Program-made: the position numbers and the translations under genes | The notes under the pieces: model-generated | What the model saw: only the letters and a program-made list of their open reading frames with translations | The model's database searches: none | Told to the model about the DNA's origin: nothing | Virus record (IMG/VR): IMGVR_UViG_3300020492_000001 | Coordinates: 1-64,000 of that record | Length of the DNA stretch: 64,000 nucleotides | Origin: a virus | Taxonomy: Duplodnaviria; Caudoviricetes | Strand: one strand, 5' to 3' | Shown: positions 3,000 to 58,359 of the stretch, piece after piece | Numbering within the stretch: position 1 is the stretch's first letter | Layout: each line of letters begins with the position of its first letter

Positions 3000-5900
3000 G
3001 TTGTAGGGGTATAATTATTTAAACTATATCCTCTAGCCTCGTCTGCTTTTAATCTAGCTTGTTGGTCTTGTCTAAATCTATATGCTCCAATAGTATTAGC
3101 TAATCCTGCGCCTATTAATTCACTTCCTGCTTGTTGTTTTTGCTGAAAGGTATTCATAGCATCGTTATAAGCTTGTCTTCTATTAGCTGCTAATATAGTT
3201 GCTCTATCAGCCGCCATTACATCAGCATATTTTTGCTTATTCATTCTCATCTCAGAGTCAGCTTGTTTTAAGCCTAATTTATTCTTCCAAGCATCGTTAA
3301 TAGCAGCTCTGTTACGATTAAATGAATCAGATGCGCTAGCATTTAACCCTGCAAATTTAGCATCGTTTAATCCGCCTTGTATATCTTGCTCTGCCATGAA
3401 TCTTTGCTCAGGAGTTAATCCGAATAAAGCATCTTGTTGAGCGCGGTTAACAGCAGCATTATAAGTTGGGTCTATTACAGCTTTATCAATAGGACGTTTC
3501 TCTTTGCCTAGCATATTTAATCCTAATGCAGATTGTCCTATTCCTACGAATGCAGTTGGGTCAATATTACTTAATTTATCCGCCCAAGCGTTTTTAGATT
3601 TAGGTTTTGACGCTAAATAATTTTCATTATTTACTACATTAGCATCGTTTATAACAGCTTGTCTTGTTGGTGCATTAGCAATAGAAGCCTCTTGCATAGC
3701 AGCTTGATTAGCAGTCTTTAATTCAGCATCTTGTTTTAATCCTTGTAAAGACAAATCCTTAGTAGGTAAATTATCTACTGTTACTTTAGAAGCCTTTACT
3801 TTAGGTGCTTTTAAAGATGGTTTAGCTGTAGGTATATTTTCAGTAACTACACTTGGCTTAGTTTCCGCTTTAGGAGCTACTTTATTTGTCGCAGCCTTAA
3901 CTTCTGCGACATCTTGTTTAACTTCAGTCGTAGGCGATTCCGTTGATTTACTATCTTCAACCGCTTTTGTTTTTTTGTTTTCATTAAGTAATTTATTAAC
4001 ATTAGCTATCTCTTTACCTATGTCAATAGTTTTTTTCTGAAGATTAATCTTAGCTATTATATTCCCAGAATCAGCGTCTTTTTTAATATCGGCATATTCT
4101 TTAAGAAGGTCTTTTTTTCTTTGAACAAGAGCTTTTTCTTCATTTTCAACTTGCTTAGTCGTTTTATTAACAACATTATCTTTGTAAGGCTTATTTTCTT
4201 TTGGATTAAAAACTTCTAACTTAGGTCTAGTCTTAGCACTTTCATAAAGCGATACTTTATCTTTTAAAACGCCTTTAGCCTTATTTAAGTATCCTAATTT
4301 ATCATTTTCTATTTTATCATTTAGCTTCTTAGTAGATTCATGATTGTCTGTAACCTTTCTGTCTTTTTTAAAATCATTTAGCTCTTTTTCTAATTTAGAC
4401 ACTTCTTTTTTAGCATCCATAACTTTTTTAGCGTTAGCCACAATCTCATCATTATTATCAACGTCTCCGCCTAAAGCATATCCTTTCATCTTAGGAGCCA
4501 TAATCTCACCTCCTTCTGCCCATGTTGTTCTTGCATAAGCTCTGAAATGAGGATTGTTATCTAAGTTCTCTTTATGTCTTGCGTAGAAAGCTTTTTTTCT
4601 TTCAATGTCTTTAGGATGTTGTCCTAAGTTAGGGTCTCCAAAGTATTTTACAGTTCCATCTGGTCCTGTTACTTTATGAGTTTTACCTTCTCTATCACCT
4701 GACCTTTGAACTACATATCCGCCCATTTTCATTTCTTCACTATTATTTTCTGAGTTAGGAGCTAAATCTTCTAATTCAATACCAATAGATTCTAAGTATT
4801 CATTCTCTTCAGGAGTAAACAAATGTTCTCCATTAGATAGTTTTACCGCTTCTCCTTCTTCTTGTTTAAGATTAGCTTTCTTATTAGGAGCTTTTAAATA
4901 TAGTTTACGAATACCTTTTGCTAGTTCTGCATTCTCGGCAGGCACTACAAATGAGCCTTCTTTTACTTCAGCCATTATACTGTCTGATTTAGCAGTTCCT
5001 TTACCTTTAATATCTCCGCCGTCAGCATACATATTTTTTATTTTACCAACTACACCACCTCTATTCATCATAGGACGATTCTTATCGAATTGTTGTCCAT
5101 CAGCCAATATCATGTTTTGATTCTCATCAAATGTAACTCCGCTTAAATTATAAGGATTAGTTATTGTAGGATTTTCTTCTTGGTTATTTCTAGCTAATAT
5201 TGCTTGTTGTTGTTTAGATGCAGTGTTAGCATCTTTTACTTCTTGAAGTTGTTTCTGAGCTTTATCTTCTAATGACTTAGTATATCCTTTTCCTGATACA
5301 TCAGTCCATCCTCCAGCATAAGAACTTCTTGTAGCTAAGGCTTTACTTGGACTTAAAAAACTTGCTCCGATAGCTGTTGTTCTAGCATCAGATTCGTTAT
5401 TAAGTTTTCCTTCTGCATTCATTGATTCTTTTCTAGCCTTAATAGGTTTTCCTATCTTATCTCCTATTGCAGCTATTCCACCAATCATTCCTCCTATTGG
5501 TCCCATTTGAGATGCGGCTGCTAATCCTGCGTTTCTTGCAGATTCTCCTTCATTTTGTGCAGGTTGTGAATTGTAATAAGCTGAGCCTATACCTCCCATT
5601 CCTTCTCCTATTCCATTGGCTACATTTCTAACTTTTTGTTGATTAGCTTTCTTTTTATTTTCATCTATAGCCTTTTTAGCTTGCATATTGTTTTGAGCAG
5701 TATATTGATCATTCATTCCAACTACGCCACTTCCAAATGTATCTATTGGTTTATAAGAACTGTTTGAATCCCCATAGGTTCCATCAATATTCATATTAGG
5801 ATTATAGACAGGACCTCCATCATAATATCCTTTAATCTTACTTACAATACCACCTTTAGCAAACTTACCTTTAATCTCAATAGGATTATCTATATTGTAC

Positions 5901-6763
5901 ATTCTACCTACTTCCATTTCTCCTTTTCTTAAAGGAGTTATATTCTTTGTATTCATTTGAACTCCTACATTTGGAGTAACAATAGGATTTCCTTGAGTAT
6001 CGTATTTTTGTTCAATATATCCAACAGGAGCAGTAGATAAAGCATTCGGAACATCTGCGATATTTCTTTGGTTAAATTCTCCACCGCCTCCGCCAGCTAT
6101 TCTTGTAGCTTTAGTTCCAGGCATCATTAAACTTCCTTTGTAATTAGGGTTAGCTTTATCTACTCCACTCATTGCAGGAGTTTCTATTTGTTGAGTAGTA
6201 TATTCTTTTCGTATATCATCAATAGTTCTTCCTGTATAAGTTGGTACAAATTTACCATCTTTAAAGTTTTTTAATGGATTAGCTTCATCGTAAGTAACTT
6301 CTCTACCTTCTTTGTCAATATTATATTTCCTTGATGTGTTGGTATATCTTCCTTCTGCATCAGGAGTTTCAACAGTTGTTATTCCATAATTAGCTCCCCA
6401 TTGTTTTGCTGGATCTATATTTTCGTAAGTACTAACACTTCCATACAAACCTGTTTGCTTAGGAGGTATTACTTCTGGAGGCGGTAATTTATATCGTTGT
6501 ACAGTTGACCCAAATGTAGAAGACTTTTCAGGGTCTTTTTTTCTTGGAGTACCTGTGCTTTTTTTTCCGCTATAAGGCGGATACATCTTTTTTTTAGTCT
6601 CTTCATGCTTAGTCTCAACTTCCCAATACTCTCCGCCGTCAGAATCAATTTTAAGTACAGCGTTTTTTGGTATTTCAGATTTGCTTTTAACTAATTGAGG
6701 AGCAAAATCATCATTAGATTTACTTTTAGGTGCTTTAACACTTTTTCCTTTATCTTCAGGCAT
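2996..6763 (-). CDS. putative virion cargo protein (1255 aa) with repeated [FYWM]xxGG motifs
   Basis: Low-complexity and coiled-coil segments; GGxIxGxGTxxSDSI...LSNGE motif seen in phage virion proteins; follows the tail stabilisation gene. Confidence 0.55.
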   Translation of the reverse strand: MPEDKGKSVKAPKSKSNDDFAPQLVKSKSEIPKNAVLKIDSDGGEYWEVETKHEETKKKMYPPYSGKKSTGTPRKKDPEKSSTFGSTVQRYKLPPPEVIPPKQTGLYGSVSTYENIDPAKQWGANYGITTVETPDAEGRYTNTSRKYNIDKEGREVTYDEANPLKNFKDGKFVPTYTGRTIDDIRKEYTTQQIETPAMSGVDKANPNYKGSLMMPGTKATRIAGGGGGEFNQRNIADVPNALSTAPVGYIEQKYDTQGNPIVTPNVGVQMNTKNITPLRKGEMEVGRMYNIDNPIEIKGKFAKGGIVSKIKGYYDGGPVYNPNMNIDGTYGDSNSSYKPIDTFGSGVVGMNDQYTAQNNMQAKKAIDENKKKANQQKVRNVANGIGEGMGGIGSAYYNSQPAQNEGESARNAGLAAASQMGPIGGMIGGIAAIGDKIGKPIKARKESMNAEGKLNNESDARTTAIGASFLSPSKALATRSSYAGGWTDVSGKGYTKSLEDKAQKQLQEVKDANTASKQQQAILARNNQEENPTITNPYNLSGVTFDENQNMILADGQQFDKNRPMMNRGGVVGKIKNMYADGGDIKGKGTAKSDSIMAEVKEGSFVVPAENAELAKGIRKLYLKAPNKKANLKQEEGEAVKLSNGEHLFTPEENEYLESIGIELEDLAPNSENNSEEMKMGGYVVQRSGDREGKTHKVTGPDGTVKYFGDPNLGQHPKDIERKKAFYARHKENLDNNPHFRAYARTTWAEGGEIMAPKMKGYALGGDVDNNDEIVANAKKVMDAKKEVSKLEKELNDFKKDRKVTDNHESTKKLNDKIENDKLGYLNKAKGVLKDKVSLYESAKTRPKLEVFNPKENKPYKDNVVNKTTKQVENEEKALVQRKKDLLKEYADIKKDADSGNIIAKINLQKKTIDIGKEIANVNKLLNENKKTKAVEDSKSTESPTTEVKQDVAEVKAATNKVAPKAETKPSVVTENIPTAKPSLKAPKVKASKVTVDNLPTKDLSLQGLKQDAELKTANQAAMQEASIANAPTRQAVINDANVVNNENYLASKPKSKNAWADKLSNIDPTAFVGIGQSALGLNMLGKEKRPIDKAVIDPTYNAAVNRAQQDALFGLTPEQRFMAEQDIQGGLNDAKFAGLNASASDSFNRNRAAINDAWKNKLGLKQADSEMRMNKQKYADVMAADRATILAANRRQAYNDAMNTFQQKQQAGSELIGAGLANTIGAYRFRQDQQARLKADEARGYSLNNYTPTT

Positions 6764-6810
6764 GGTATTTATGTTTTATACAAACAAAAATACATATTTT
6801 AATAATACTT

Positions 6811-7320
6811 CTAACGAGCTGCTCGACTTAAAAAAGCAAAGAAATATAAAGAATCTTCTATTTTATTAATCTTATCTCTGTAATTAAATTGAACTGAAAC
6901 AACTTTAAATCTAAATAATTTATTAAACACGTTTTGAGGAATAGCATATTCAACATAACTCAACTTATGATCTATTTCAAATGCAGCAATATAATCTTCA
7001 CTACCATCTTCAAATCCTATTTTTATAATAGAGTTGTTTAAATCTGTAGTCTTAGAGAAATAAGCATACAATCTAACTCCATAATGGCCAGCGCGGATAC
7101 TGTCAGAGAAAACAGAAAAATAAGTAGTATCTTTTCCGTCAACAAACTCTAAATTATAAGAAGGATATTTTGTAATGATACTTTTCTTGTAGTAAGAATT
7201 ATAACTAGAATATCTTTCTATCTCCATAGATTGCCCAAAAGCACAACTGCTTAATAATAAGAATCCAAATGATAATAATAAAACTAAAATGTTTGTTCTA
7301 CGAGATTTAATAGCTTCCAT
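6811..7320 (-). CDS. putative lipoprotein/membrane protein
   Basis: Basic N-terminus, hydrophobic stretch, lipobox-like LLSSC. Confidence 0.5.
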   Translation of the reverse strand: MEAIKSRRTNILVLLLSFGFLLLSSCAFGQSMEIERYSSYNSYYKKSIITKYPSYNLEFVDGKDTTYFSVFSDSIRAGHYGVRLYAYFSKTTDLNNSIIKIGFEDGSEDYIAAFEIDHKLSYVEYAIPQNVFNKLFRFKVVSVQFNYRDKINKIEDSLYFFAFLSRAAR

Positions 7321-7402: not shown

Positions 7403-10400
7403 TCTTTTACTTACAAACATTGTTTTTAACCATTGAGTTACCTTCTGTACATTTTTAGCAGTAGTAGGATTAGTAACATAGTTTTTATGTACAAATTTTA
7501 CCCTAACATAGTAGTCAGTTAATCTTCCTCTTAATCTATCTAATGCGACTGAAAAGAACCATGCGCCATCTATGAATCTATAATTTCTATTAGTAGAAGA
7601 TATATTTAAATCACTTGAAGCCTGATTTTCTGTATCAAAATAAACACTTGTAGAGTTCGGTCCAATAGTCTTTACCTGCATATTTTGTGGGGTTACCGCC
7701 ATGTCAGTCTTGAAATTAACAACAACCTCTTGCTCAAAATCCCATACCTTACCATAGAACTTACATAAGTCAGCTCCAAAGTTTTGTAAATAAATCTCAT
7801 TAGTTTTATTAATAGCTAACCAAAAATCATTTGCTCCGCCAGTTGAACCTAACGCTAAAGGACTAGTACCTCCATTTGTAGTTGTGCCTGGATATGAAGC
7901 TATAGTTACATCCTTAACACAAATATACTCTACATTTTTAACTAATACTGTATCTCCAATTACAAATGAAGTAGATGGCATATCTGCATTATAAGCTTTA
8001 GTATTCTTAGGATTATTTGCCGACACTACTAAATCATTATGATTATGCCATATTGCAGGACAATTATCAGTAAATGCTACAAAAGCATTTAAAACATGAT
8101 TGTATCCTAAAGTAAAATCTCTGTTTACAAATGTAATTTTTTTTACTGGTTCCGTATCTGTTTTAGTGTATTTAAAAGTTAAGTAAGTCATTTTAAATGT
8201 AGGGTCGTAAACTCCCACTATACCATATCCCATTAAAGGAATTTCAGGTATATCTAAATTATTTGTATTATAAATAGTAGATGTAACAGCAGGAAACAAT
8301 ACATTACCTTCATTAAATTCATTATTAAAGAATACTTGCAATCCTTTAACCATAGACATTTCTTCAGGCTTACTTCCAATACCCATTACCATAAATGCTC
8401 TTCTACGCATATCAAACCACGCAAAACCATATTCTGTTTCTGTTAGTCCGTGTTGGTGTTGATTTCCAAAGTTAGTATCTATATCATCATATCTATCAAT
8501 AACTCCTGTCACACCTAATGCAGTAGCATCTCCTAAAGCACTTCCTCCGACTAATTGACGTTCTAATATCGGCGTGTAACCTACTGAGTGGTCTTGCCAA
8601 TAGAATAGTTTAGAATCTCTTGCTTTAAGATTATTAATTTGTCCACGCTGTCCATCTAAATCTCTGTAATCAGGTATTCTAAATACACGGAATGAATCTA
8701 TTAATTCACCAGGCGTTTTGTATTTACTCCATCTAATTCTGTAATCAAATTCTCCTGTAAACTTATAATTAAGTGGTAGTGACGGATATTTAATAAAATT
8801 ACCATCGGTAGTATATGCTTTGTTATAATTATAAGATTCTAATTGTGTCGTAGGAGACAAAGATGAATCAAACCATCCTATGCCTGTAGCTCCCGAAGAA
8901 GGATACATATTCTTATTTGATACCTTTTGCCCTCTTCTTAAATTATAGTTTACATTACCCTCACATGGAAACCATAAAGCATAAGACATAGCATTGTCGC
9001 TAGTTTCAAATGCTTCATCCCATAATCCATATCCTAAATCAATAAGATTTGTAAAGCAATCTCCGCCGAACACCTCTATATCATTAAAAGTATATTTATT
9101 TTCTCCTGCGTAAATTCCTGAAGCAAACGTTCCGTTTAAAGTATCCGCTTTAACTTGTGTGTTAATAGGTTGAAAGTGACCACAAGACATATACAATGTA
9201 TTAGCTATAGCTGATTCGCTTGCTCCTCCGTATTGATTAGCTGGGTCTGTATCTGTTATAAAATTAGCTAACATCTTGTTATAGTTAGACGTATTAGCAG
9301 TAGCGTTATAATCCGTTAAAGCATCAAAGTGATTAAATTGAGATTTAATTATTTGCTTTTTACACCCAACAGATAAAATATCAAAGCCTGGGTCAAAAGG
9401 TGTTACGCCACAAATAGAATCATAATTAAGTGTTACTTGAAATTCATTTACGTTAGAATATCTATTTCTATAATCAACACTTGTTCCTAAAAAACCTCCA
9501 GCGCCAGTATTTTCATCAAAATTATAAACAGCATTTCCATTCATTGATTTAAGAGGTAAAGTTCTTGGAGAACTAGCATCTTTTCCTGTACCAAAGCTTC
9601 CAACAGGCATTTGAAATAATTTAGTAAACATTACTCTTTTTTGAGTATCTGTTTTTAATTGACTTCCATTTAACCAACAAGCTTCTTTTAAATTATCTCC
9701 AATTTTAACCGCAGAAGGAAAAGAATATCCAGTTTGTATATCAGGCGATAATACAGAGTAAATATAGTATCCATCTCCAACTTCATACATAGGTAAAATA
9801 CTATAATCTGTTCTGCATATACCTAATGGCATAACAGAATTAAAACCAAGCAAATTACTATATACACTTTGCATTAATAATCCTTGCGTAATTACAATCG
9901 GGTCGCGTTCTGCTCTTACTATACTAAACCCACTAACTTGATTCATTATTGATTCAGGTATATCTAATCCACTTACATTAATTCCAGATGTATTTAATGC
10001 GTAAGAGTATTGAGTAGGAGTTGTTCCAAATATGGCGCTTTTTGTCATTAATCCTCCTTTATCAGGAATAGTATCAAAAGTGTAGTCAAAAGTTGTTGGA
10101 TCTCCTTTTATATATTTTACATAGAATGGATTACCCTTTAAGTCAAAAAACAAAATTCCAAATCTATATTTTTCTCCACTCCAATATCCTTTATTATGAG
10201 ATGCTACAGCAGGGTCTTTGTAATCCCAAAATCCTGTTGTTAATTGTATAGCATCTTCTCTTCTTTTTCCTACATCAGAAGAAGATGGATTAGTAACTGT
10301 ATATTTATTTTTAGTTGTACATGGTCTTACTGATGCTGTTCCTGTAAATAACATTATAGCCCAAATAGAACCTCCAACAATAACCTCTCCAGTAACATAA

Positions 10401-51821: not shown

Positions 51822-52178
51822 ATGAAAAACAATCCAACAACAGGAAAACGCAAAGAGGCGGATGCTCCAACAAACTTAGTAATAGAAGGTTCTATTGACT
51901 ATAAACTAACTATATCTAAAAAAGGATATGAATTAGAAACTAAGAATAGTATTGATAATGATTTAGCTGCCATGTTACACGCAAGAGGAATAATAGAAAT
52001 GTATAAAAAAGACTCTGAGATGACTAAAGCTCATCCTATTTATAAAATGATGAAGCCTGACAAAAGAAAAGAATTTAATAGTAAGTACGATAAACTAATT
52101 CACGCATCTTATATTATAGAGAAATTATCTGGAAAATTATTAGAAAATGCTATGATAGCTATTAACAAAAAAGATTAA
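51822..52178 (+). CDS. hypothetical protein
   Basis: Co-oriented ORF. Confidence 0.55.
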   Translation: MKNNPTTGKRKEADAPTNLVIEGSIDYKLTISKKGYELETKNSIDNDLAAMLHARGIIEMYKKDSEMTKAHPIYKMMKPDKRKEFNSKYDKLIHASYIIEKLSGKLLENAMIAINKKD

Positions 52179-52182
52179 TGCC

Positions 52183-52428
52183 ATGAAACATAAACGCGAA
52201 CTTAAAATTTATAACGGAAGAGTAAAAGTATATGTAGATGGATACGTGATGTTTTCTTTTAATCAAATTGACTTCTTAGGTTATTATGCTTATAAGGACG
52301 ATACTTCACTCTACGGATTAGATATTTATTTATTAAGAGAAAAAGCGGGTGCGTCCACGATGGAAATTTACTTTAAAACTAAAGAGAATTGGCTCGAAAT
52401 GCTTAAATTACTTGATACTCATTTGTAA
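52183..52428 (+). CDS. hypothetical protein
   Basis: Co-oriented ORF. Confidence 0.55.
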   Translation: MKHKRELKIYNGRVKVYVDGYVMFSFNQIDFLGYYAYKDDTSLYGLDIYLLREKAGASTMEIYFKTKENWLEMLKLLDTHL

Positions 52429-52450
52429 TTTAATTATTTTGAAAATAAAC

Positions 52451-52478
52451 GTAACCTTTTAAATTTATATACGTTTAA
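52451..52478 (+). promoter_or_regulatory. ECF-like promoter motif at the head of the cassette array
   Basis: GTAACC-N15-CGTTTAA, 6 bp before hairpin 1. Confidence 0.7.
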
Positions 52479-52484
52479 ATAGAT

Positions 52485-52614
52485 AGATAACGTTGAGTAT
52501 ATATGTTCGGTTGCGATTAATAGCACGAACTTATCAATTTAAACAAAACTTAATAGAATGAACAAAATTTCAAATAAACACGAAACCGCAACTGACATAT
52601 ATACTGTGTTATGT
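52485..52614. repeat. attC-like hairpin 1
   Basis: AGATAAC-GTTG-AGTATATATGTTCGGTTGCG ... CGCAACTGACATATATACT-GT-GTTATGT. Confidence 0.85.
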
Positions 52615-53010
52615 GCTGCCTTTTGTGGTGCTGGTAAAACATTTATTTGTGATAAAACAGATATAAAGGCAGTTGAAGTTGAATATTGGAAGTATAAAGA
52701 AAAAGGACTGTTCAAAGAATATATTGAAGATGTTAAGAAGTATATCGGTAAGGTAGATTACATCTTTATTGCAACAGAGCCAGAAGGAATGAAATTGCTA
52801 CATGATGAAGGATTTGAAATAACTCTTGTTTACCCAAAAAATGAACTCCGAAACGAATATTTGGATAGATACATTGAGCGTGATAGTCCTTATGATTTTA
52901 TTGGAACATTTATGAAGCATTGGCATATATGGATTGATGAACTTAAAGAGCAAAAATATTGTAAGCATATTATTTTGGATTCAGGACAATACTTGCAGAA
53001 TGTTCTTTAA
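52558..53010 (+). CDS. cassette 1 ORF: P-loop kinase-like protein
   Basis: VLCAAFCGAGKT Walker A; starts inside hairpin 1. Confidence 0.65.
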   Translation: MNKISNKHETATDIYTVLCAAFCGAGKTFICDKTDIKAVEVEYWKYKEKGLFKEYIEDVKKYIGKVDYIFIATEPEGMKLLHDEGFEITLVYPKNELRNEYLDRYIERDSPYDFIGTFMKHWHIWIDELKEQKYCKHIILDSGQYLQNVL

Positions 53011-53016
53011 GGTTGC

Positions 53017-53109
53017 ACATAACGTTTTGCGGCTTGGCGAAGGCTGCCTAACGGATGCTCAATTTTCGCACAAATTTCAATGGCAGCTTTTGCCAAACCG
53101 CTGTTACCT
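53017..53109. repeat. attC-like hairpin 2
   Basis: ACATAAC-GTTTT-GCGGCTTGGCGAAGGCTGCC ... GGCAGCTTTTGCCAAACCGC-T-GTTACCT. Confidence 0.85.
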
Positions 53110-53418
53110 GCTGGGCGGTTTATCAGTAGGAACTTAAAAATAATATTCAAAATGTTGCCAAAAGAAAAAGCACAGGAACTTGTAAGCAAGTTTAAAGATT
53201 ACGTTCACGGATATGTTGGTAGCTCAATGCTTACCAACCATGAATACCCTGAACAAATTTTATCACAAGCAAAGAAAGTAGCAATTATTGTTGCAGATGA
53301 AATGCTCCATCAATACACTACTTTAAATGCTGATTTAATAAACGCATTGTATCGAACAGAAAAGGTTGTCTTTTGGCAACAGGTCAAAATAGAAATTGAT
53401 TATGTGTCGGAATTGTAG
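53080..53418 (+). CDS. cassette 2 ORF: MTPKEKA-family protein (alternative start at MLPKEKA)
   Basis: MLPKEKAQELVSKF...AIIVADEM...FWQQVKIEI. Confidence 0.6.
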   Translation: MAAFAKPLLPAGRFISRNLKIIFKMLPKEKAQELVSKFKDYVHGYVGSSMLTNHEYPEQILSQAKKVAIIVADEMLHQYTTLNADLINALYRTEKVVFWQQVKIEIDYVSEL

Positions 53419-53424
53419 CCTTGC

Positions 53425-53557
53425 AGGTAACGTTTCGCAGCTATATTTAGTTGCGATTTTGAAAAACAAAAGTTTAATTAATAAATAAAAGTAAATATGA
53501 AAAACAAAGTTGAAAATAAGAGCAATAATAAGCAATTGAATATACTAGCTGTTAGGC
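53425..53557. repeat. attC-like hairpin 3
   Basis: AGGTAAC-GTTTC-GCAGCTATATTTAGTTGC ... GCAATTGAATATACTAGC-T-GTTAGGC. Confidence 0.8.
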
Positions 53558-53940
53558 GTAGTTTTTTTAACTTCAAGTATAAATGGCCATTAAGAAAATA
53601 CTGGCTTAATTGGTTTAAAAGAGATGTTAAGAGATGGTATTATTCTAAAATACACGGTTTTAAAATGGGTGTATTTGATGGAACTATGATTCCAACTACT
53701 GGTAAAGGTAAATATGTATCTGTTTATTCTAAAGGTGAAATAATCCAAATTAAACATGAAAGCGGTTATGAACATTTAGAGTATGATGAAATTAGAATAA
53801 TACCATGTCAAGAAAATCACGGTGTAATGGTTGAAAGATTTAAAACAGGAAAAATGTGCGATAGAAACCACATGGATTTAAAGCAATTTAATAAAGGTAT
53901 AATTTTCGCTTCCAATGTTGAACAGTTGGCTGGTCGTTAA
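53497..53940 (+). CDS. cassette 3 ORF, hypothetical
   Basis: Starts inside hairpin 3, stops 6 nt before hairpin 4. Confidence 0.6.
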   Translation: MKNKVENKSNNKQLNILAVRRSFFNFKYKWPLRKYWLNWFKRDVKRWYYSKIHGFKMGVFDGTMIPTTGKGKYVSVYSKGEIIQIKHESGYEHLEYDEIRIIPCQENHGVMVERFKTGKMCDRNHMDLKQFNKGIIFASNVEQLAGR

Positions 53941-53946
53941 AATTAC

Positions 53947-54082
53947 GCCTAACGTTTTGCAACTTGCATTAGTGCCTTGCAAAAATACGAGTAGCTTCGG
54001 ATTAAAAAAGAACACAACAAATAAAAAACAAACATTAAATTAACAACCAAGCCAAAGGCATTGATGCAAATTGCTGTTATGC
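53947..54082. repeat. attC-like hairpin 4
   Basis: GCCTAAC-GTTTT-GCAACTTGCATTAGTGCCTT ... AAGGCATTGATGCAAATTGC-T-GTTATGC. Confidence 0.85.
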
Positions 54083-54107
54083 GCTGGCAAAAAAAAAATT
54101 AAAAATT

Positions 54108-54422
54108 ATGAGTACAATTATCGAAGACATTCAGTTTATGAAATCAATTTTGCCTGAACACTATGAGGTAAAAGAAAGTAAAAAATCAGGTTCAATTCAT
54201 TGTAAATCAAGTATTGGATTAAGAAAAACGCCATACAATAGTTTTGATAGTTTTAAACGACCAATTATTGTTGATGATGCGGAAGATGAAGAACAATGGT
54301 TTTATATCGTTGAAGCTATTAAAGCAAAGTTTGGCGAAAGGTTACAGGAAATTGACCATAACACTTGTTTTTGCCACGTCGATTTCACGATTTATCTGCG
54401 GTTTTCCGTTGCTTGCGCATAA
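54108..54422 (+). CDS. cassette 4 ORF, hypothetical
   Basis: Stop codon is the TAA of the next site's GCATAAC. Confidence 0.6.
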   Translation: MSTIIEDIQFMKSILPEHYEVKESKKSGSIHCKSSIGLRKTPYNSFDSFKRPIIVDDAEDEEQWFYIVEAIKAKFGERLQEIDHNTCFCHVDFTIYLRFSVACA

Positions 54423-54548
54423 CGGTTTGCAGCTAAACGAGGTGGCTGATTAATACCTCGAAACTTAATTAAAAGAACAAAATTATGAACACAGACAAAA
54501 GTTTATTAGAAGAACAAAGCAAGCCATCTTTTTTAGGTGCTGTTATGT
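54417..54548. repeat. attC-like hairpin 5
   Basis: GCATAAC-GGTTT-GCAGCTAAACGAGGTGGCT ... AGCCATCTTTTTTAGGTGC-T-GTTATGT. Confidence 0.85.
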
Positions 54549-54691
54549 GCCGTTTTTTATTCCAATACAGAAGTATGGATAAAGATTTAATGGTACATAT
54601 TGAAGCAAGTAGTTTAAATTATGCAATGGTGAAATTTGCAACTCACTACCATTTAATTGATGAAGTGTATGAGATTGCAAGGGTGTCCTAA
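54485..54691 (+). CDS. cassette 5 ORF, hypothetical
   Basis: Starts inside hairpin 5 (…SFLGAVMCRF is encoded by the right arm). Confidence 0.6.
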   Translation: MNTDKSLLEEQSKPSFLGAVMCRFLFQYRSMDKDLMVHIEASSLNYAMVKFATHYHLIDEVYEIARVS

Positions 54692-54697
54692 AATGGC

Positions 54698-54847
54698 ACA
54701 TAACGGAAAATAATAAACGTATGTGTTGGTGTGTGGTTAAAGTGTTCCTCTGGCTAATGGACAAGTACCATAACCGTAAGTGCCTAAAACTTACCATACC
54801 ACGCTACGGGCGGAACACGCCAACATTACGTTTATTTATTGTTAGCA
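54698..54847. repeat. attC-like hairpin 6
   Basis: ACATAAC-GGAA-AATAATAAACGTATGTGTTGG ... CCAACATTACGTTTATTTATT-GTTAGCA. Confidence 0.75.
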
Positions 54848-54862
54848 AATCGTTTTAATGTT

Positions 54863-54941
54863 TGCTAACGGCATCAAGCTAAAAGCTGACCGCCTAATAA
54901 GCGGTTAGTATATGGCGGTTTGATTTTAGGTTGTGTTATGT
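54863..54941. repeat. attC-like hairpin 7
   Basis: TGCTAAC-GGCAT-CAAGCTAAAAGCTGACCGCC ... GGCGGTTTGATTTTAGGTTG-T-GTTATGT. Confidence 0.8.
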
Positions 54942-55003
54942 TGGTGCGATGGCAAGTGTGTGAGGCAGTTTTATTTTATTAATTTTTAAAAAAGCGGAGG
55001 AAA

Positions 55004-55216
55004 ATGGAAAACTTATACTTTAGAAAAAAACTTATATGGGCTGAAATTGAGCGATTAAAACACGAACTTGAAAAGAATCAAGAGTTTATTAACTTATTTC
55101 AAAAACAAAACAATGATTTGCTAAAACAGATTGAAAAGCAATTTAAAGAAATAGAAATTGTTGGAGAGCAATTACTAAAAATAGAAACAGAACAATTAAT
55201 AAAACATGATTTATGA
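55004..55216 (+). CDS. cassette 7 ORF a, coiled-coil hypothetical
   Basis: Heptad pattern. Confidence 0.55.
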   Translation: MENLYFRKKLIWAEIERLKHELEKNQEFINLFQKQNNDLLKQIEKQFKEIEIVGEQLLKIETEQLIKHDL

Positions 55217-55482
55217 CAACAGAAAAACCACTTAGAAAAACAGGCAGTTATATAGTAATTGCCAAACGTTGGAGCAGCGAACAATCACATAATTACATTG
55301 TAGATTTATGCTCAGGAATTGATTCAGCTAAAGAAATTGCAGAAAATGAAATGCGAGAGCGTGGCGGTAAATATGGGATACAGATAATTGCTTTTAGAGA
55401 AGATAACAACGAGCAAGAAATTGTTTTTGAAATTGAAAGCCCATATAAGAATAAGGTAAATATACCTACTGATAACGCTTAG
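55213..55482 (+). CDS. cassette 7 ORF b, hypothetical
   Basis: ATGA overlap with ORF a. Confidence 0.55.
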   Translation: MTTEKPLRKTGSYIVIAKRWSSEQSHNYIVDLCSGIDSAKEIAENEMRERGGKYGIQIIAFREDNNEQEIVFEIESPYKNKVNIPTDNA

Positions 55483-55519
55483 GTGCGTAGGCTTTTAAAA
55501 ATTAATAAAATAAAATTGA

Positions 55520-55606
55520 ACATAACGGTTTGCAGCTAATAGAAGGCTGTAATTACACAAAAATATATGAGCTGTTAACTCAGCTTTTTATTAGGTGCTG
55601 TTAGTA
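55520..55606. repeat. attC-like hairpin 8
   Basis: ACATAAC-GGTTT-GCAGCTAATAGAAGGCTG ... CAGCTTTTTATTAGGTGC-T-GTTAGTA. Confidence 0.85.
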
Positions 55607-55655
55607 CCAGTAGCCAAATTAAAATTTAAAAACAATAACAATTAAAAACTAAAAT

Positions 55656-55934
55656 ATGAAAAACAACAAAGAACAATCGTACCAATACGCTGCAATTATA
55701 CAAGGCGCAATAGCAGAAATGTTAAATGAAGATAGTGATAGCGATTATAGAATATCGTTAAGCGATTTTGATGATGAGGATAAAGCAACTGCATTTTTGC
55801 ACGCATTAGCTAATATAGTGCCTTGTAATATCTATAAAAAATTAACTCAAGATGATACTGACATTTTAGGTTTTAATCATATCGCTAATAGATTAGTATA
55901 TCAATTTACAAAGCAGGACGAAGCCGAAGATTAA
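55656..55934 (+). CDS. cassette 8 ORF, hypothetical
   Basis: Fills the interval between hairpins 8 and 9. Confidence 0.6.
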   Translation: MKNNKEQSYQYAAIIQGAIAEMLNEDSDSDYRISLSDFDDEDKATAFLHALANIVPCNIYKKLTQDDTDILGFNHIANRLVYQFTKQDEAED

Positions 55935-55951
55935 ACATCAAAGGCTATTAG

Positions 55952-56082
55952 TACTAACGGTTGGTGCTTTATTTAGTGCCGACTTAACAGATAAAATTTA
56001 ATTGAAACACAAATGAAAAATAAAAAGACAAAAGTAAAATCGAAGCCGAAAACTAAGGCATTGAATAAAGCACTTGTTAGCA
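55952..56082. repeat. attC-like hairpin 9
   Basis: TACTAAC-GGTTG-GTGCTTTATTTAGTGCC ... GGCATTGAATAAAGCAC-TT-GTTAGCA. Confidence 0.85.
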
Positions 56083-56270
56083 GTAGTGCCTATGTGCGTT
56101 ACCGCTACTCAGGTAAATCTTCTTCAATATTTTGGGATATAGTAAATTCATTACCAAAAGATGCAGACAGACAAGAGATGTATGCTTTAGGATGCGTTTT
56201 GCAAAATGTTGAAGAAGATGTGTTGAGAACACTAAGGAATATTAACAGCAAGTATGTGCGTGGCAAATAG
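56013..56270 (+). CDS. cassette 9 ORF, hypothetical
   Basis: Starts inside hairpin 9. Confidence 0.6.
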   Translation: MKNKKTKVKSKPKTKALNKALVSSSAYVRYRYSGKSSSIFWDIVNSLPKDADRQEMYALGCVLQNVEEDVLRTLRNINSKYVRGK

Positions 56271-56277
56271 GCATTAC

Positions 56278-56411
56278 TGCTAACGTTCTGGCGGTTGGCG
56301 TTCGTTGCCGACTTTGGAACACTAAACTTTCACTTTTAAAATAAATTTGATATGGAACACAAAACTTCAATAAACCACGAAAACGGCAATGACGCCAACC
56401 GCTTGTTACCA
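56278..56411. repeat. attC-like hairpin 10
   Basis: TGCTAAC-GTTCTG-GCGGTTGGCGTTCGTTGCCG ... CGGCAATGACGCCAACCGC-TT-GTTACCA. Confidence 0.85.
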
Positions 56412-56579
56412 GCAGTTAGTTGGTATAAATCATTATCGCTCAACCAAAAGATGGCGCTCAAAGAAGTATCAGCATTAATTTGTGGAATGAAATGGGAAGA
56501 TTTCAATATTCTATTCAGTCCACGAGAAAGACTTGAGATATTGCACAACAAATTAATATTGGAAGGTTTCCTTGTCTAA
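56352..56579 (+). CDS. cassette 10 ORF, hypothetical
   Basis: Starts inside hairpin 10. Confidence 0.6.
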   Translation: MEHKTSINHENGNDANRLLPAVSWYKSLSLNQKMALKEVSALICGMKWEDFNILFSPRERLEILHNKLILEGFLV

Positions 56580-56583
56580 TTGC

Positions 56584-56681
56584 TGGTAACGTTTTGCAGC
56601 TAATAGAAGTGGCTGCTTGTAAGAACTTCTGAATTATAAACAAATGCTTGTAGCAGCCATTTTTGTTAGGTGCTGTTATAA
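56584..56681. repeat. attC-like hairpin 11
   Basis: TGGTAAC-GTTTT-GCAGCTAATAGAAGTGGCTGCT ... AGCAGCCATTTTTGTTAGGTGC-T-GTTATAA. Confidence 0.85.
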
Positions 56682-56700
56682 GCTGTAAAAATTACGACTT

Positions 56701-56907
56701 ATGAAAACGTATTTATCATTTTACGGAGATTGTTATTACCCAAGCGGTGGTATGGGTGATTTTATTGGAGATTACGACACCAAAGAAGAAGCGATACAAG
56801 CTATTGAAGAAGCTCACAAAAAGAACCGCCCTGATGATTTAGAATGGGAGTGGGCTTGGGCTAATGTTTGGAGTGCACATGACCGAATCGAAGTGTACAC
56901 TAAGTAA
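56701..56907 (+). CDS. cassette 11 ORF, hypothetical
   Basis: MKTYLSFYGDCYYPSGGMGDF; fills the interval. Confidence 0.6.
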   Translation: MKTYLSFYGDCYYPSGGMGDFIGDYDTKEEAIQAIEEAHKKNRPDDLEWEWAWANVWSAHDRIEVYTK

Positions 56908-56917
56908 TTTTTATTGC

Positions 56918-56981
56918 TTATAACGGATGAAGCCTTACCCAGCGAAGGTGTCGACCGAGTTGGGTAAGGGTTGGGTTATAA
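56918..56981. repeat. attC-like hairpin 12 (shortest, 64 bp)
   Basis: TTATAAC-GGATG-AAGCCTTACCCAGC ... GTTGGGTAAGGGTT-GG-GTTATAA. Confidence 0.85.
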
Positions 56982-57032
56982 GCTGACGGTTACTAATGTT
57001 ACTATGAAAAACAATTTAAAAAAAATAACGAT

Positions 57033-57218
57033 ATGATTGAAATAGAAGAATTATTTGGTGGAAATGATGCCGAAGAACACAATGTTTTATACACTATTAT
57101 TAAAAATAGAGGATATAAATATTTTGAAGAAACACCCAAAACAAGTATGACTTGCGGATTAATTAAAGATTTACACGAACTAAATTACGAGATTGTAAAA
57201 AAAAACGTTTCAAAGTAG
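57033..57218 (+). CDS. cassette 12 ORF, hypothetical
   Basis: Fills the interval between hairpins 12 and 13. Confidence 0.55.
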   Translation: MIEIEELFGGNDAEEHNVLYTIIKNRGYKYFEETPKTSMTCGLIKDLHELNYEIVKKNVSK

Positions 57219-57229
57219 CTACCGTTTGC

Positions 57230-57353
57230 TTATAACGGTTCGCAGATAAACGCAGTTTTATGAAACAGAAATTAGATATAGAAAAAATTAGAGAGTTGGA
57301 AACCATAGCTAAAGAATTAGATGCTGAAAAATTGCGTTTATCTGCTGTTAGCA
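57230..57353. repeat. attC-like hairpin 13
   Basis: TTATAAC-GGTTC-GCAGATAAACGCAGTTTT ... AAAATTGCGTTTATCTGC-T-GTTAGCA. Confidence 0.85.
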
Positions 57354-57457
57354 AATCGGTTTGCGACCACTCTTGGATGAACACAGGATTATCAGTACAA
57401 GGCAAAAGTTTGATGGTATGCACCAAATGTAGGGAAACCAAGCAAACTGTTTGCTAA
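57260..57457 (+). CDS. cassette 13 ORF: coiled coil plus CDH..C..C zinc-ribbon-like tail
   Basis: VCDHSW...MVCTKC; starts inside hairpin 13; stop is the TAA of the terminal TGCTAAC. Confidence 0.55.
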   Translation: MKQKLDIEKIRELETIAKELDAEKLRLSAVSKSVCDHSWMNTGLSVQGKSLMVCTKCRETKQTVC

Positions 57458-57480
57458 CTATTATATGTAAACTACCCTTT
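57452..57480. other. candidate attI-like primary recombination site
   Basis: Lone TGCTAAC box not followed by G or a hairpin arm; TGCTAAC-TATTATAT-GTAAACT; 67 bp upstream of the recombinase start. Confidence 0.55.
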
Positions 57481-57525
57481 AAACTAACAGCAAAATCAAT
57501 ACTCTTTAATTAAAAAATCGAAAAT

Positions 57526-58359
57526 ATGAATTTAGAAAAGTGGATAAATAGATATAAAACTGATTGTGCTTTAAAGTATAATAGTGATGCAACCAAAGAA
57601 AATTACACTTCTGGAGTTAAATCTTTTCTTATAAAATTCGATAAATATTCTGAGCCTAAAGAAATACCGACTCAGGAAATTAAAGAGTATTTATTGACTT
57701 TTAAAACGATAAATACACGAAAGCATAACCTTTGCTCTATTAAATCTTTCTATAAATTAACTGTAGGTATGCCAAGCAAGATTGATAAGATTCCTTATCC
57801 TAAGTCTGATAAGAAACTACCTATCGTTCTTTCTGTAAACGAAATTCAAAGAATGTTTAATGTCTGCCAAAATAAGAAGCATAAAGCAATTTTAGCTTTA
57901 CTGTACTCTTGTGGATTACGTGTATCGGAACTTATAAATTTGAAATGGAAAGATATTGATAGAAGTAGAATGGTAATTAATATAATCCAAGCTAAGGGAA
58001 ATAAGGATAGGCAAGTCCCATTATCTCAAGATTTGATTAATGTATTAGAAAGTTACTGGAATGAGTACAAGTCCGCCGAGTATGTTTTTAATGGACAAAA
58101 ATCACTGCAATACACAGATAGAAGTGTAGGAGAAGTAATTAAACAGTTGGCAGATAAAGCAGGAATATGTAATAAAAGGGTTTACACACACCTTATGCGT
58201 CATTGCAGCTTTACGCACATGGTTGAGAACGGAACTGATATTTCGCTTATCCAAAGACTCGCTGGACATTCTAGTGTAAAAACGACTAATATCTACCTCC
58301 ATATCAGCCATAATCACATAAGTAAAATCCAAAGTCCACTAAGTAATATTAAATTATAA
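57526..58359 (+). CDS. tyrosine recombinase, IntI-related/XerD-like (277 aa)
   Basis: LPIVLS..E, LYSCGLRVSE (R), AKGNKDR (K), HLMRH (HxxR), LAGH, TNIY (Y), C-terminal IQSPL. Confidence 0.92.
   Translation: MNLEKWINRYKTDCALKYNSDATKENYTSGVKSFLIKFDKYSEPKEIPTQEIKEYLLTFKTINTRKHNLCSIKSFYKLTVGMPSKIDKIPYPKSDKKLPIVLSVNEIQRMFNVCQNKKHKAILALLYSCGLRVSELINLKWKDIDRSRMVINIIQAKGNKDRQVPLSQDLINVLESYWNEYKSAEYVFNGQKSLQYTDRSVGEVIKQLADKAGICNKRVYTHLMRHCSFTHMVENGTDISLIQRLAGHSSVKTTNIYLHISHNHISKIQSPLSNIKL

Follow-up and report, generated by a model that had tools for sequence, protein, structure and literature searches.

A Probable Phage-Borne Integron-Type Array with Inverted Cassettes and an Insertion-Less Tyrosine Recombinase

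Results

Overview of the Array

The sequence analyzed here, referred to as the window, is a 64,000-nucleotide stretch of IMG/VR virus record IMGVR_UViG_3300020492_000001 (Caudoviricetes); the record is 76.3 kb long, complete, and bounded by direct terminal repeats, and the window is its first 64 kb. Positions 52476–58359 of the window contain 13 hairpin-bounded units followed by a tyrosine recombinase gene, and this region is probably a phage-borne, integron-type gene-capture platform, i.e., an integron variant with inverted cassettes and a recombinase that lacks the insertion (I2) of the integron integrase IntI. Judged from sequence comparison, the phage system keeps the site build and the bottom-strand geometry of integrons, while its cargo is inverted, its pairing arm longer, and its enzyme shorter. 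We also lean, with clearly less confidence, towards a broader view, in which phages of Flavobacteriia run their own integron: an I2-less, Xer-like recombinase would capture and reshuffle hairpin-headed cassettes, drawn from a pool common to unrelated phages, at sites of a Bacteroidota type.

Complementarity of the Cassette Ends

The original prediction held that the two ends of every cassette are complementary, the footprint of units that existed as circles. All 13 GTT starts (52608...57347) and all 13 AAC ends (53023...57458) are present as described, and complementary ends were found in 13 of 13 GTT...AAC units. We counted, at positions 5–18, the matches of every start to every reverse-complemented end; the sum for own pairs was 120, while shuffled pairings gave 56.1 ± 8.1 with a maximum of 100, and none of 100,000 reached 120. 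A start pairs with the end of its own cassette and not with the AAC of its own hairpin, as had been claimed (111 vs. 48 matches for the same 12 starts). Circularization of each cassette in silico at AAC created a long continuous stem with a mean of −24.1 kcal/mol at the junction, compared to −17.3 kcal/mol in the array context and −17.6 ± 0.7 kcal/mol (minimum −20.2) in 300 shuffles of the ends.

The same end-pairing rule holds in 239 cassettes that are bounded by consecutive sites in ~100 other viral contigs. In this set, the arms pair over positions 1–15 and not further; the mismatch frequency is 0.13–0.37 at positions 5–15, with the exception of positions 10–11, and rises to about 0.7 from position 16. 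At position 11, the start has G and the end has T in 237 of the 239 cassettes, which gives a T.G pair on the plus strand. Positions 6–9 and 12–15 each include all four types of Watson-Crick pair, and position 5 includes three. The variable positions therefore covary, and it is the pairing itself that is kept rather than one conserved motif.

The predicted pairing length of 8–18 bp describes the range inside this array, but the typical length is 15 bp in the larger set. Similarly, the statement that the pairing exceeds the canonical 7 bp is correct against class 1 integrons, but the pairing already extends over 11 bp in the chromosomal integrons of Bacteroidota. Specific to the phages are the T.G at position 11 and four further pairs.

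Complementary ends are to be expected if a unit has a whole recombination site only after closing on itself. The interpretation of the ends as a footprint of circular units is supported by near-identical units that are reordered as blocks between phages, described below; the circular intermediates themselves we infer from conservative recombination between directly repeated sites. A solitary complete site was also seen in a bacterial chromosome (L113; G163:C1, about 576091). Its flanking arms pair with each other (GGCATAAC / GTTATGCC), as would be expected of a site that has not been split.

Boundaries and Reshuffling of the Units

The array and its recombinase gene comprise the following features, in which ORF denotes an open reading frame:

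52476–52491, plus strand: E0 distal half-site (...ATAGATAAC), the fixed left boundary of the array; backbone homology with L004/L007 stops at 52494–52497, a few bases from the E0 AAC
52492–53023, plus strand: Unit 1; hairpin 52492–52607, start arm from 52608, ORF 52558–53010 (150 aa, phrog_4182), end arm to 53023
53024–53431, plus strand: Unit 2; hairpin 53024–53102, ORF probably from ATG 53152; phrog_21441 matches residues 25–107 of the 53080 frame
53432–53953, plus strand: Unit 3; weak hairpin 53432–53550, ORF 53497–53940 beginning inside the hairpin loop
53954–54423, plus strand: Unit 4; hairpin 53954–54075, 88.7% identical to a hairpin of Flavobacterium phage snusmum6-1; ORF 54108–54422
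54424–54704, plus strand: Unit 5; hairpin, ORF 54485–54691; block 54420–54706 identical in L007, at another array position
54705–54869, plus strand: Unit 6; hairpin and empty 29-bp cassette 54841–54869, which has no gene and is just two paired arms around TCGTTTTAA
54870–55526, plus strand: Unit 7; hairpin, two ORFs (55004–55216 and 55213–55482), weakest end pairing (8 bp)
55527–55958, plus strand: Unit 8; hairpin, ORF 55656–55934 (phrog_37916)
55959–56284, plus strand: Unit 9; hairpin, ORF 56013–56270
56285–56590, plus strand: Unit 10; hairpin, ORF 56352–56579; identical block in L007, order swapped with Unit 11
56591–56924, plus strand: Unit 11; hairpin, ORF 56701–56907 (phrog_1411); identical block in L007
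56925–57236, plus strand: Unit 12; shortest hairpin (50 nt from AAC to GTT), ORF 57033–57218
57237–57458, plus strand: Unit 13; hairpin, ORF 57260–57457; recombinase-proximal cassette
57459–57525, plus strand: attI-like region TAAC|TATTATATGTAAAC..., 67 nt to the recombinase ATG
57526–58359, plus strand: 277-aa Xer/IntI-like tyrosine recombinase without the IntI insertion (PF00589, E = 1e-38)

To assign the hairpins to their genes, we compared pairs of cassettes whose interiors are homologous. In 14 of these pairs, conservation extended to the upstream hairpin but not to the downstream one, with the reverse in one; these pairs come partly from overlapping contigs and amount to about 7–8 independent comparisons. 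G000 and L007, whose recombinases are 100% identical, have exact-identity blocks that start and stop in TAACG, and four units common to both run in the order 6...1,5,4 in G000 and 4,5,6,7,1 in L007. The new junctions have only 5–6 nt in common, which is evidence against both chimeric assembly and homologous exchange. Units in common are 99–100% identical and the flanking backbone is 84–98.8% identical, a difference that points to a recent horizontal exchange of units. The limits of the variable region coincide exactly with the E0 AAC (52491) and the last AAC (57458).

The ends of the identity blocks localize the crossover to TAAC|G as a whole and to no finer position. Since this crossover lies 5' of the hairpin, each hairpin is part of the downstream cassette. 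The mobile unit is G, imperfect hairpin, GTTA arm, gene (usually one small gene), and arm-TAAC, with the hairpin going with the downstream gene. The textbook top-strand drawing of an integron assigns the hairpin to the upstream cassette. For these arrays, the linkage of genes to hairpins and the limits of the identity blocks ruled out that textbook cassette, a gene followed by its own hairpin with a crossover at G|TT. A second candidate, in which the hairpin is an independent insert similar to a miniature inverted-repeat transposable element, was also rejected, as genes travel with the upstream hairpin plus both arms.

A related arrangement was observed in a 642-kb uncultured phage (L002, LR756502) at about 5930–6410, where the hairpin and both arms of Unit 2 surround an unrelated ORF; homology to Unit 2 ends at the start codon region and returns at the stop codon. 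The same array contains, twice, 70-nt pieces starting with an attI-like core (TAAC|TACTTTGTATGTATGC).

Recombinase and attI-Like Junction

An alignment of the recombinase family revealed invariant catalytic residues (R, K, HxxR, H, and Y) and the absence of the IntI insertion from every member. Compared to VchIntIA (PDB: 2a3v), 30 residues of the phage protein face 73 between residues 172 and 202, making it ~43 residues shorter. The integron-integrase model TIGR02249 matched with 164.5 bits, in two pieces, against a cut-off of 265, and the Xer models all scored below their cut-offs as well (XerA 198 vs. 220, XerD 175 vs. 330, and XerC 162 vs. 335 bits). The C-terminus has an SPL tail, as in IntI, and the identity to an IntI of Bacteroidota is 25%.

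In all loci retrieved by the recombinase (57–100% identity) and in two loci found by the hairpin motif, every site is on the strand of the recombinase gene and immediately ahead of it. The last AAC is 52–71 nt ahead of the recombinase ATG in recombinase-bearing relatives. The junction TAAC|TAYTATATGTA, 52–67 nt before the ATG, is preserved in at least 13 loci whose recombinases are 57–100% identical; a 35%-identical recombinase has its last AAC 71 nt upstream and a different junction sequence. The unit that adjoins the junction varies between phages with an identical recombinase. Unit 9, for example, is the recombinase-adjoining unit in L005, L007, and L008, and an empty cassette resembling that of Unit 6 adjoins the attI-like site in L004 and L009. 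Locus L019 (about 9900–10000) displays a recombinase, a half-site of the end-arm type, and the core of the junction (CTGCTAAC|ATACAATATGTG), with no hairpin sites in the 10 kb upstream; by analogy, it looks like an empty platform of the In0 kind.

More than 120 recombinase clusters above 70% identity were found in metagenomes. Among 50,697 phage records there was no close homologue, the best match being the protein of Polaribacter phage Leef_1 (32%). On the bacterial side, the close family is present on five contigs of metagenome-assembled genomes only, mostly short ones. The 17-mer TAACGKTTTGCRGCTAA occurs in just 2 of 401 Bacteroidota genomes, one of which encodes a 41%-identical recombinase with no array.

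Sites in Other Viral Genomes

Sites were located with our own energy-based detector of stable hairpins flanked by TAACG and GTTA. It returned 355 sites in 105 viral loci and 3 in shuffled copies. In the present genome it recovered 12 of the 13 array sites, all on the plus strand, and nothing else on either strand of the 76 kb. A first detector that counted ungapped pairs gave 797 sites, compared to 463 in shuffled DNA, and was dropped. The sites consist of invariant TAAC and GTTA boxes, a 4–5-nt bulge after AACG, and an inner stem. Hairpins of the family are 36–173 nt long (median 110), compared to a defined total of about 57–141 nt for attC, and those of one subfamily have at least 17 identical bases in common.

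The layout is the same in the cultured Polaribacter phage Leef_1 (L111, MT732473) at 4700–7000. Its boxes are CCAAC/GTTGG, the arms of one cassette agree at 14 of 16 positions and are again mismatched at positions 10–11, and AAC|GCCCCTATATACG stands ahead of the integrase gene. Bartlau et al. deduced a temperate lifestyle from the Leef_1 integrase (PMC8776804). In Polaribacter phages Freya_1 and Freya_10 (L114–L116), the integrase is located behind small same-strand ORFs; the detector gave no convincing hairpin sites in the Freya phages. Isolates of the Freya genus are 43.9–48.9 kb in size and differ by up to 5 kb.

Arrays also occur in phages that have no adjacent recombinase. Flavobacterium phage snusmum6-1 (L001, 289–5297) has ten sites in an isolate genome without a tyrosine recombinase, and two DNA methyltransferase genes are located in its array. 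About 25 recombinase-less arrays (e.g., L035, L040, L079, L095, and L098) often end in TAAC followed by nnCnnGCTAA(A/C), unlike the recombinase-side junction.

Gene Orientation and Chromosomal Integrons of Bacteroidota

The longest ORF is on the recombinase strand and directed towards the recombinase in 267 of 279 phage units (96%), and the first ATG is inside the hairpin in 95 units. The hairpin therefore precedes the gene, and a Pc-type promoter at attI could not drive the cassettes. The plus-strand fold is the more stable one in 240 of 276 hairpins. When phage sites were collected with a wobble-blind detector, G.T outnumbered A.C on the plus strand (409 vs. 79).

For comparison, full-length IntI above the TIGR02249 cut-off was detected in 37 of the 121 Bacteroidota genomes sampled. 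In six of eight chromosomal IntI loci, the detector accepted 2–18 sites ahead of intI on the intI sense strand, with 6–18 sites in five of the six. These chromosomal sites have the same build as the phage sites (TAAC, G, 4-nt bulge, inner stem, GTTA), and the complementarity between cassette ends extends over 11 bp. The cassette genes are on the strand opposite to intI in 49 of 52 units, i.e., 6% are on the recombinase strand, which is the classical layout. In six genomes (L120–L125; G042, G086, G114, G090, G034, and G062), near-uniform sites of the form TAAC GACCC GCGTTTAAGCGG...CCGCTTGAAACGC TT GTTA precede intI in the classical cassette orientation.

IntegronFinder surveys reported almost only In0 in Bacteroidetes (PMC9024848). 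The arrays beside IntI in six of eight loci suggest that current surveys of Bacteroidota miss this attC type.

Genomic Context and Cargo

The minus strand of the window up to ~34 kb is filled by large ORFs, presumably structural genes, and the plus-strand block around the array encodes an SNF2-type helicase, a DnaB-type helicase, and the tyrosine recombinase. DNA matches of the window indicate Flavobacterium-type phages. In the search for cultured relatives, DNA matches were restricted to single hairpins, in snusmum6-1 and in the 642-kb uncultured phage. The cargo of the array consists of small proteins. Five of the nine scanned belong to PHROG families of unknown function, none of 10 cassette proteins scanned matched Pfam above the curated cut-off, and no Rfam family was found at E ≤ 0.1 within 52000–58000.

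Discussion

Proposed Mechanism

In the proposed mechanism, excision and closure of a unit would join its end arm to its own hairpin, so that the junction folds into one long site. This closed site would have a 15-bp outer stem comparable to the R box, a central AAC|G with a 4–5-nt bulge, and an inner stem comparable to the L box. A tyrosine recombinase would exchange strands within TAAC|G; excision would occur between two such sites, and the TAAC|TAYTATATGTA junction immediately ahead of the recombinase gene would, as an attI-like site, receive the insertions. The adjacent 277-aa Xer/IntI-like protein is the most likely enzyme. The geometry corresponds to an integron read on the bottom strand (cassettes, attI, and sense integrase), but with the cassette genes on that same strand. 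The folding of single-stranded DNA, the strand that is cut, and the adjacent recombinase as the catalyst are likewise inferred.

Several points weigh against a phage integron of this kind. Circle junctions, the cleavage site, and activity are deductions from sequence data, and all the relatives are metagenome assemblies. According to two reports, the I2 helix enabled IntI to recombine single-stranded sites (PMC7790495, PMC8138268), and the phage recombinase has no I2 insertion. Bacteroidota often encode a full-length IntI, which could be the true catalyst. In addition, most arrays found by the hairpin motif have no recombinase of the phage type within several kb. No PF00589 protein was found in five records tested, one of them the complete genome of an isolate and one estimated to be 100% complete; in such records another enzyme must act, possibly a host IntI, or the arrays are inert. 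Lastly, the plus-strand wobble bias fits the folding of mRNA as well as that of DNA, and the strand bias in fold energy is absent from chromosomal sites, a comparison made on fold energies because a Watson-Crick-only detector finds just 3 chromosomal sites.

Alternative Explanations

One alternative is that the array is a cluster of attC sites lacking an integron integrase (CALIN) that is recombined by a host or co-infecting full-length IntI. The 277-aa enzyme would then serve lysogeny or dimer resolution, and its attP- or dif-like site would merely collect cassettes. Single-recombinase Xer systems (XerS and XerH) adjoin their site, which we counted for this explanation. The frequency of full-length IntI and of same-build site arrays in Bacteroidota is in its favor, as are the many phage arrays without a recombinase of their own and the finding that attC sites of phage CALINs can be recombined by the bacterial IntI1 (Qi et al. 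2023, PMC9892861). We nevertheless consider it unlikely. The array abuts the recombinase at a conserved junction and in one orientation across recombinases that are 57–100% identical, whereas the recombinase-less arrays end in another motif. Moreover, the arm rule of the phages (15 bp, T.G at position 11) is unlike the 11-bp rule beside chromosomal IntI, which suggests adaptation to a different protein.

Another explanation is that the complementarity and the hairpins serve the mRNA, in its processing, stabilization, or translational control, and that the recombination signal is the short TAACG core only. In 267 of 279 units, the strand that folds also carries the gene, the coding strand has a strong G.T (G.U) bias that chromosomal sites, with their genes on the other strand, do not have, and the start codon is within the hairpin loop in 95 units. 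Chromosomal cassettes whose genes are on the opposite strand nevertheless keep their arm complementarity, and the pairing is therefore independent of mRNA sense. The invariant TAAC/GTTA boxes are typical of tyrosine-recombinase sites, and there was no Rfam match. As a replacement for recombination this explanation is improbable; it is compatible with the integron-type reading, and the hairpins and arms may have a role at the RNA level alongside recombination.

Homologous hairpin recombination has been proposed for the promoter-stem-loop cassettes of T4-type phages, and subfamily hairpins here have at least 17 identical bases in common in genomes that are all assemblies, but shuffling by homology between similar hairpins or by metagenome misassembly is highly improbable, as the new junctions have only TAACG (5–6 nt) in common in unrelated hairpin contexts, which is too short, and the same arrangements recur in contigs of different samples (L005, L007, and L008; L004 and L031–L033).

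Significance

Integrons are seen as bacterial devices, with an integrase that gained the I2 helix for recombining folded single strands (PMC7790495). If the integron-type reading is true, the IntI insertion would not be required for recombining folded sites, and a widespread I2-less phage system would be a natural counter-example or an earlier evolutionary stage. Phages would own a dedicated engine for the exchange of early or accessory genes, which would explain the swapping of small early genes among unrelated flavobacterial phages. The "integrase" of many marine flavophages would also be no evidence of lysogeny, which calls for caution with the temperate reading of Leef_1 (PMC8776804). The cultured pair of Leef_1 and its Polaribacter host makes the idea testable.

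Comparison with Known Systems

Chromosome dimer resolution by Xer differs from the phage system in that there is one duplex dif site, with two inverted arms around a 6–8-bp spacer, instead of multiple arrayed hairpins, and the phage recombinase has no equivalog-level Xer match. The pdif modules of Acinetobacter plasmids are small gene modules bounded by inverted recombinase arms, with 28-bp duplex sites and no hairpin. The promoter early stem-loop (PeSL) cassettes of T4-type phages are bounded by stem-loops and located in hyperplastic regions, and their exchange is homologous and promoter-linked. To our knowledge, neither pdif modules nor PeSL cassettes have unit-specific end complementarity or a TAAC|G crossover.

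Integrative mobile elements exploiting Xer (IMEX), such as CTX-phi, integrate as folded single-stranded DNA via Xer, with one strand exchange that replication resolves. An I2-less, Xer-class enzyme acting on a single-strand hairpin is a precedent for the mechanism proposed here. CTX-phi differs in that a whole phage genome enters the host dif through the host XerCD, rather than a cassette array with a dedicated enzyme.

The definition of a CALIN (at least two attC sites and no IntI nearby) formally applies to the array, since its neighboring recombinase is not IntI by the curated model; the label is silent on a dedicated recombinase. Qi et al., who relied on the attC and IntI models of IntegronFinder, described CALINs and integron fragments in phages both virulent and temperate, a Polaribacter phage among them (PMC9892861). 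Flavobacterium phages are absent from the main text of that study (PMC9892861). The resemblance lies in the attC-type sites and cassettes and in methyltransferase cassettes, found here in snusmum6-1; in contrast, no phage-specific compact recombinase, fixed array–recombinase junction, or inverted layout was reported there (PMC9892861). In the papers searched, we found no account of phages in which an array of inverted cassettes is linked to a recombinase without the insertion, which is no proof of novelty.

Integrons, especially the chromosomal ones of Bacteroidota examined here, are also among the closest known systems. Both systems have single-gene units between imperfect AAC/GTT hairpins, complementary unit ends, and reshuffling between close relatives, and in both the crossover is at the AAC of the integrase-sense strand, with a half-site and an attI-like junction beside the integrase gene. 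The phage sites have the features that define attC, namely AAC...GTT hairpins, paired R boxes, and unpaired central bases; the R-box halves of each cassette are complementary, and cassettes move as discrete units with a crossover at a conserved triplet. They differ in the recombinase, which at 277 aa lacks ~43 residues of the IntI insertion and falls below the TIGR02249 cut-off, and in the cassettes, which are not oriented away from the integrase like the promoterless, Pc-expressed cassettes of integrons (96% of genes on the recombinase strand vs. 6% in chromosomal arrays). The arm pairing, too, is 15 bp with T.G at position 11 compared to 11 bp in chromosomal integrons, and the system is borne by phages.

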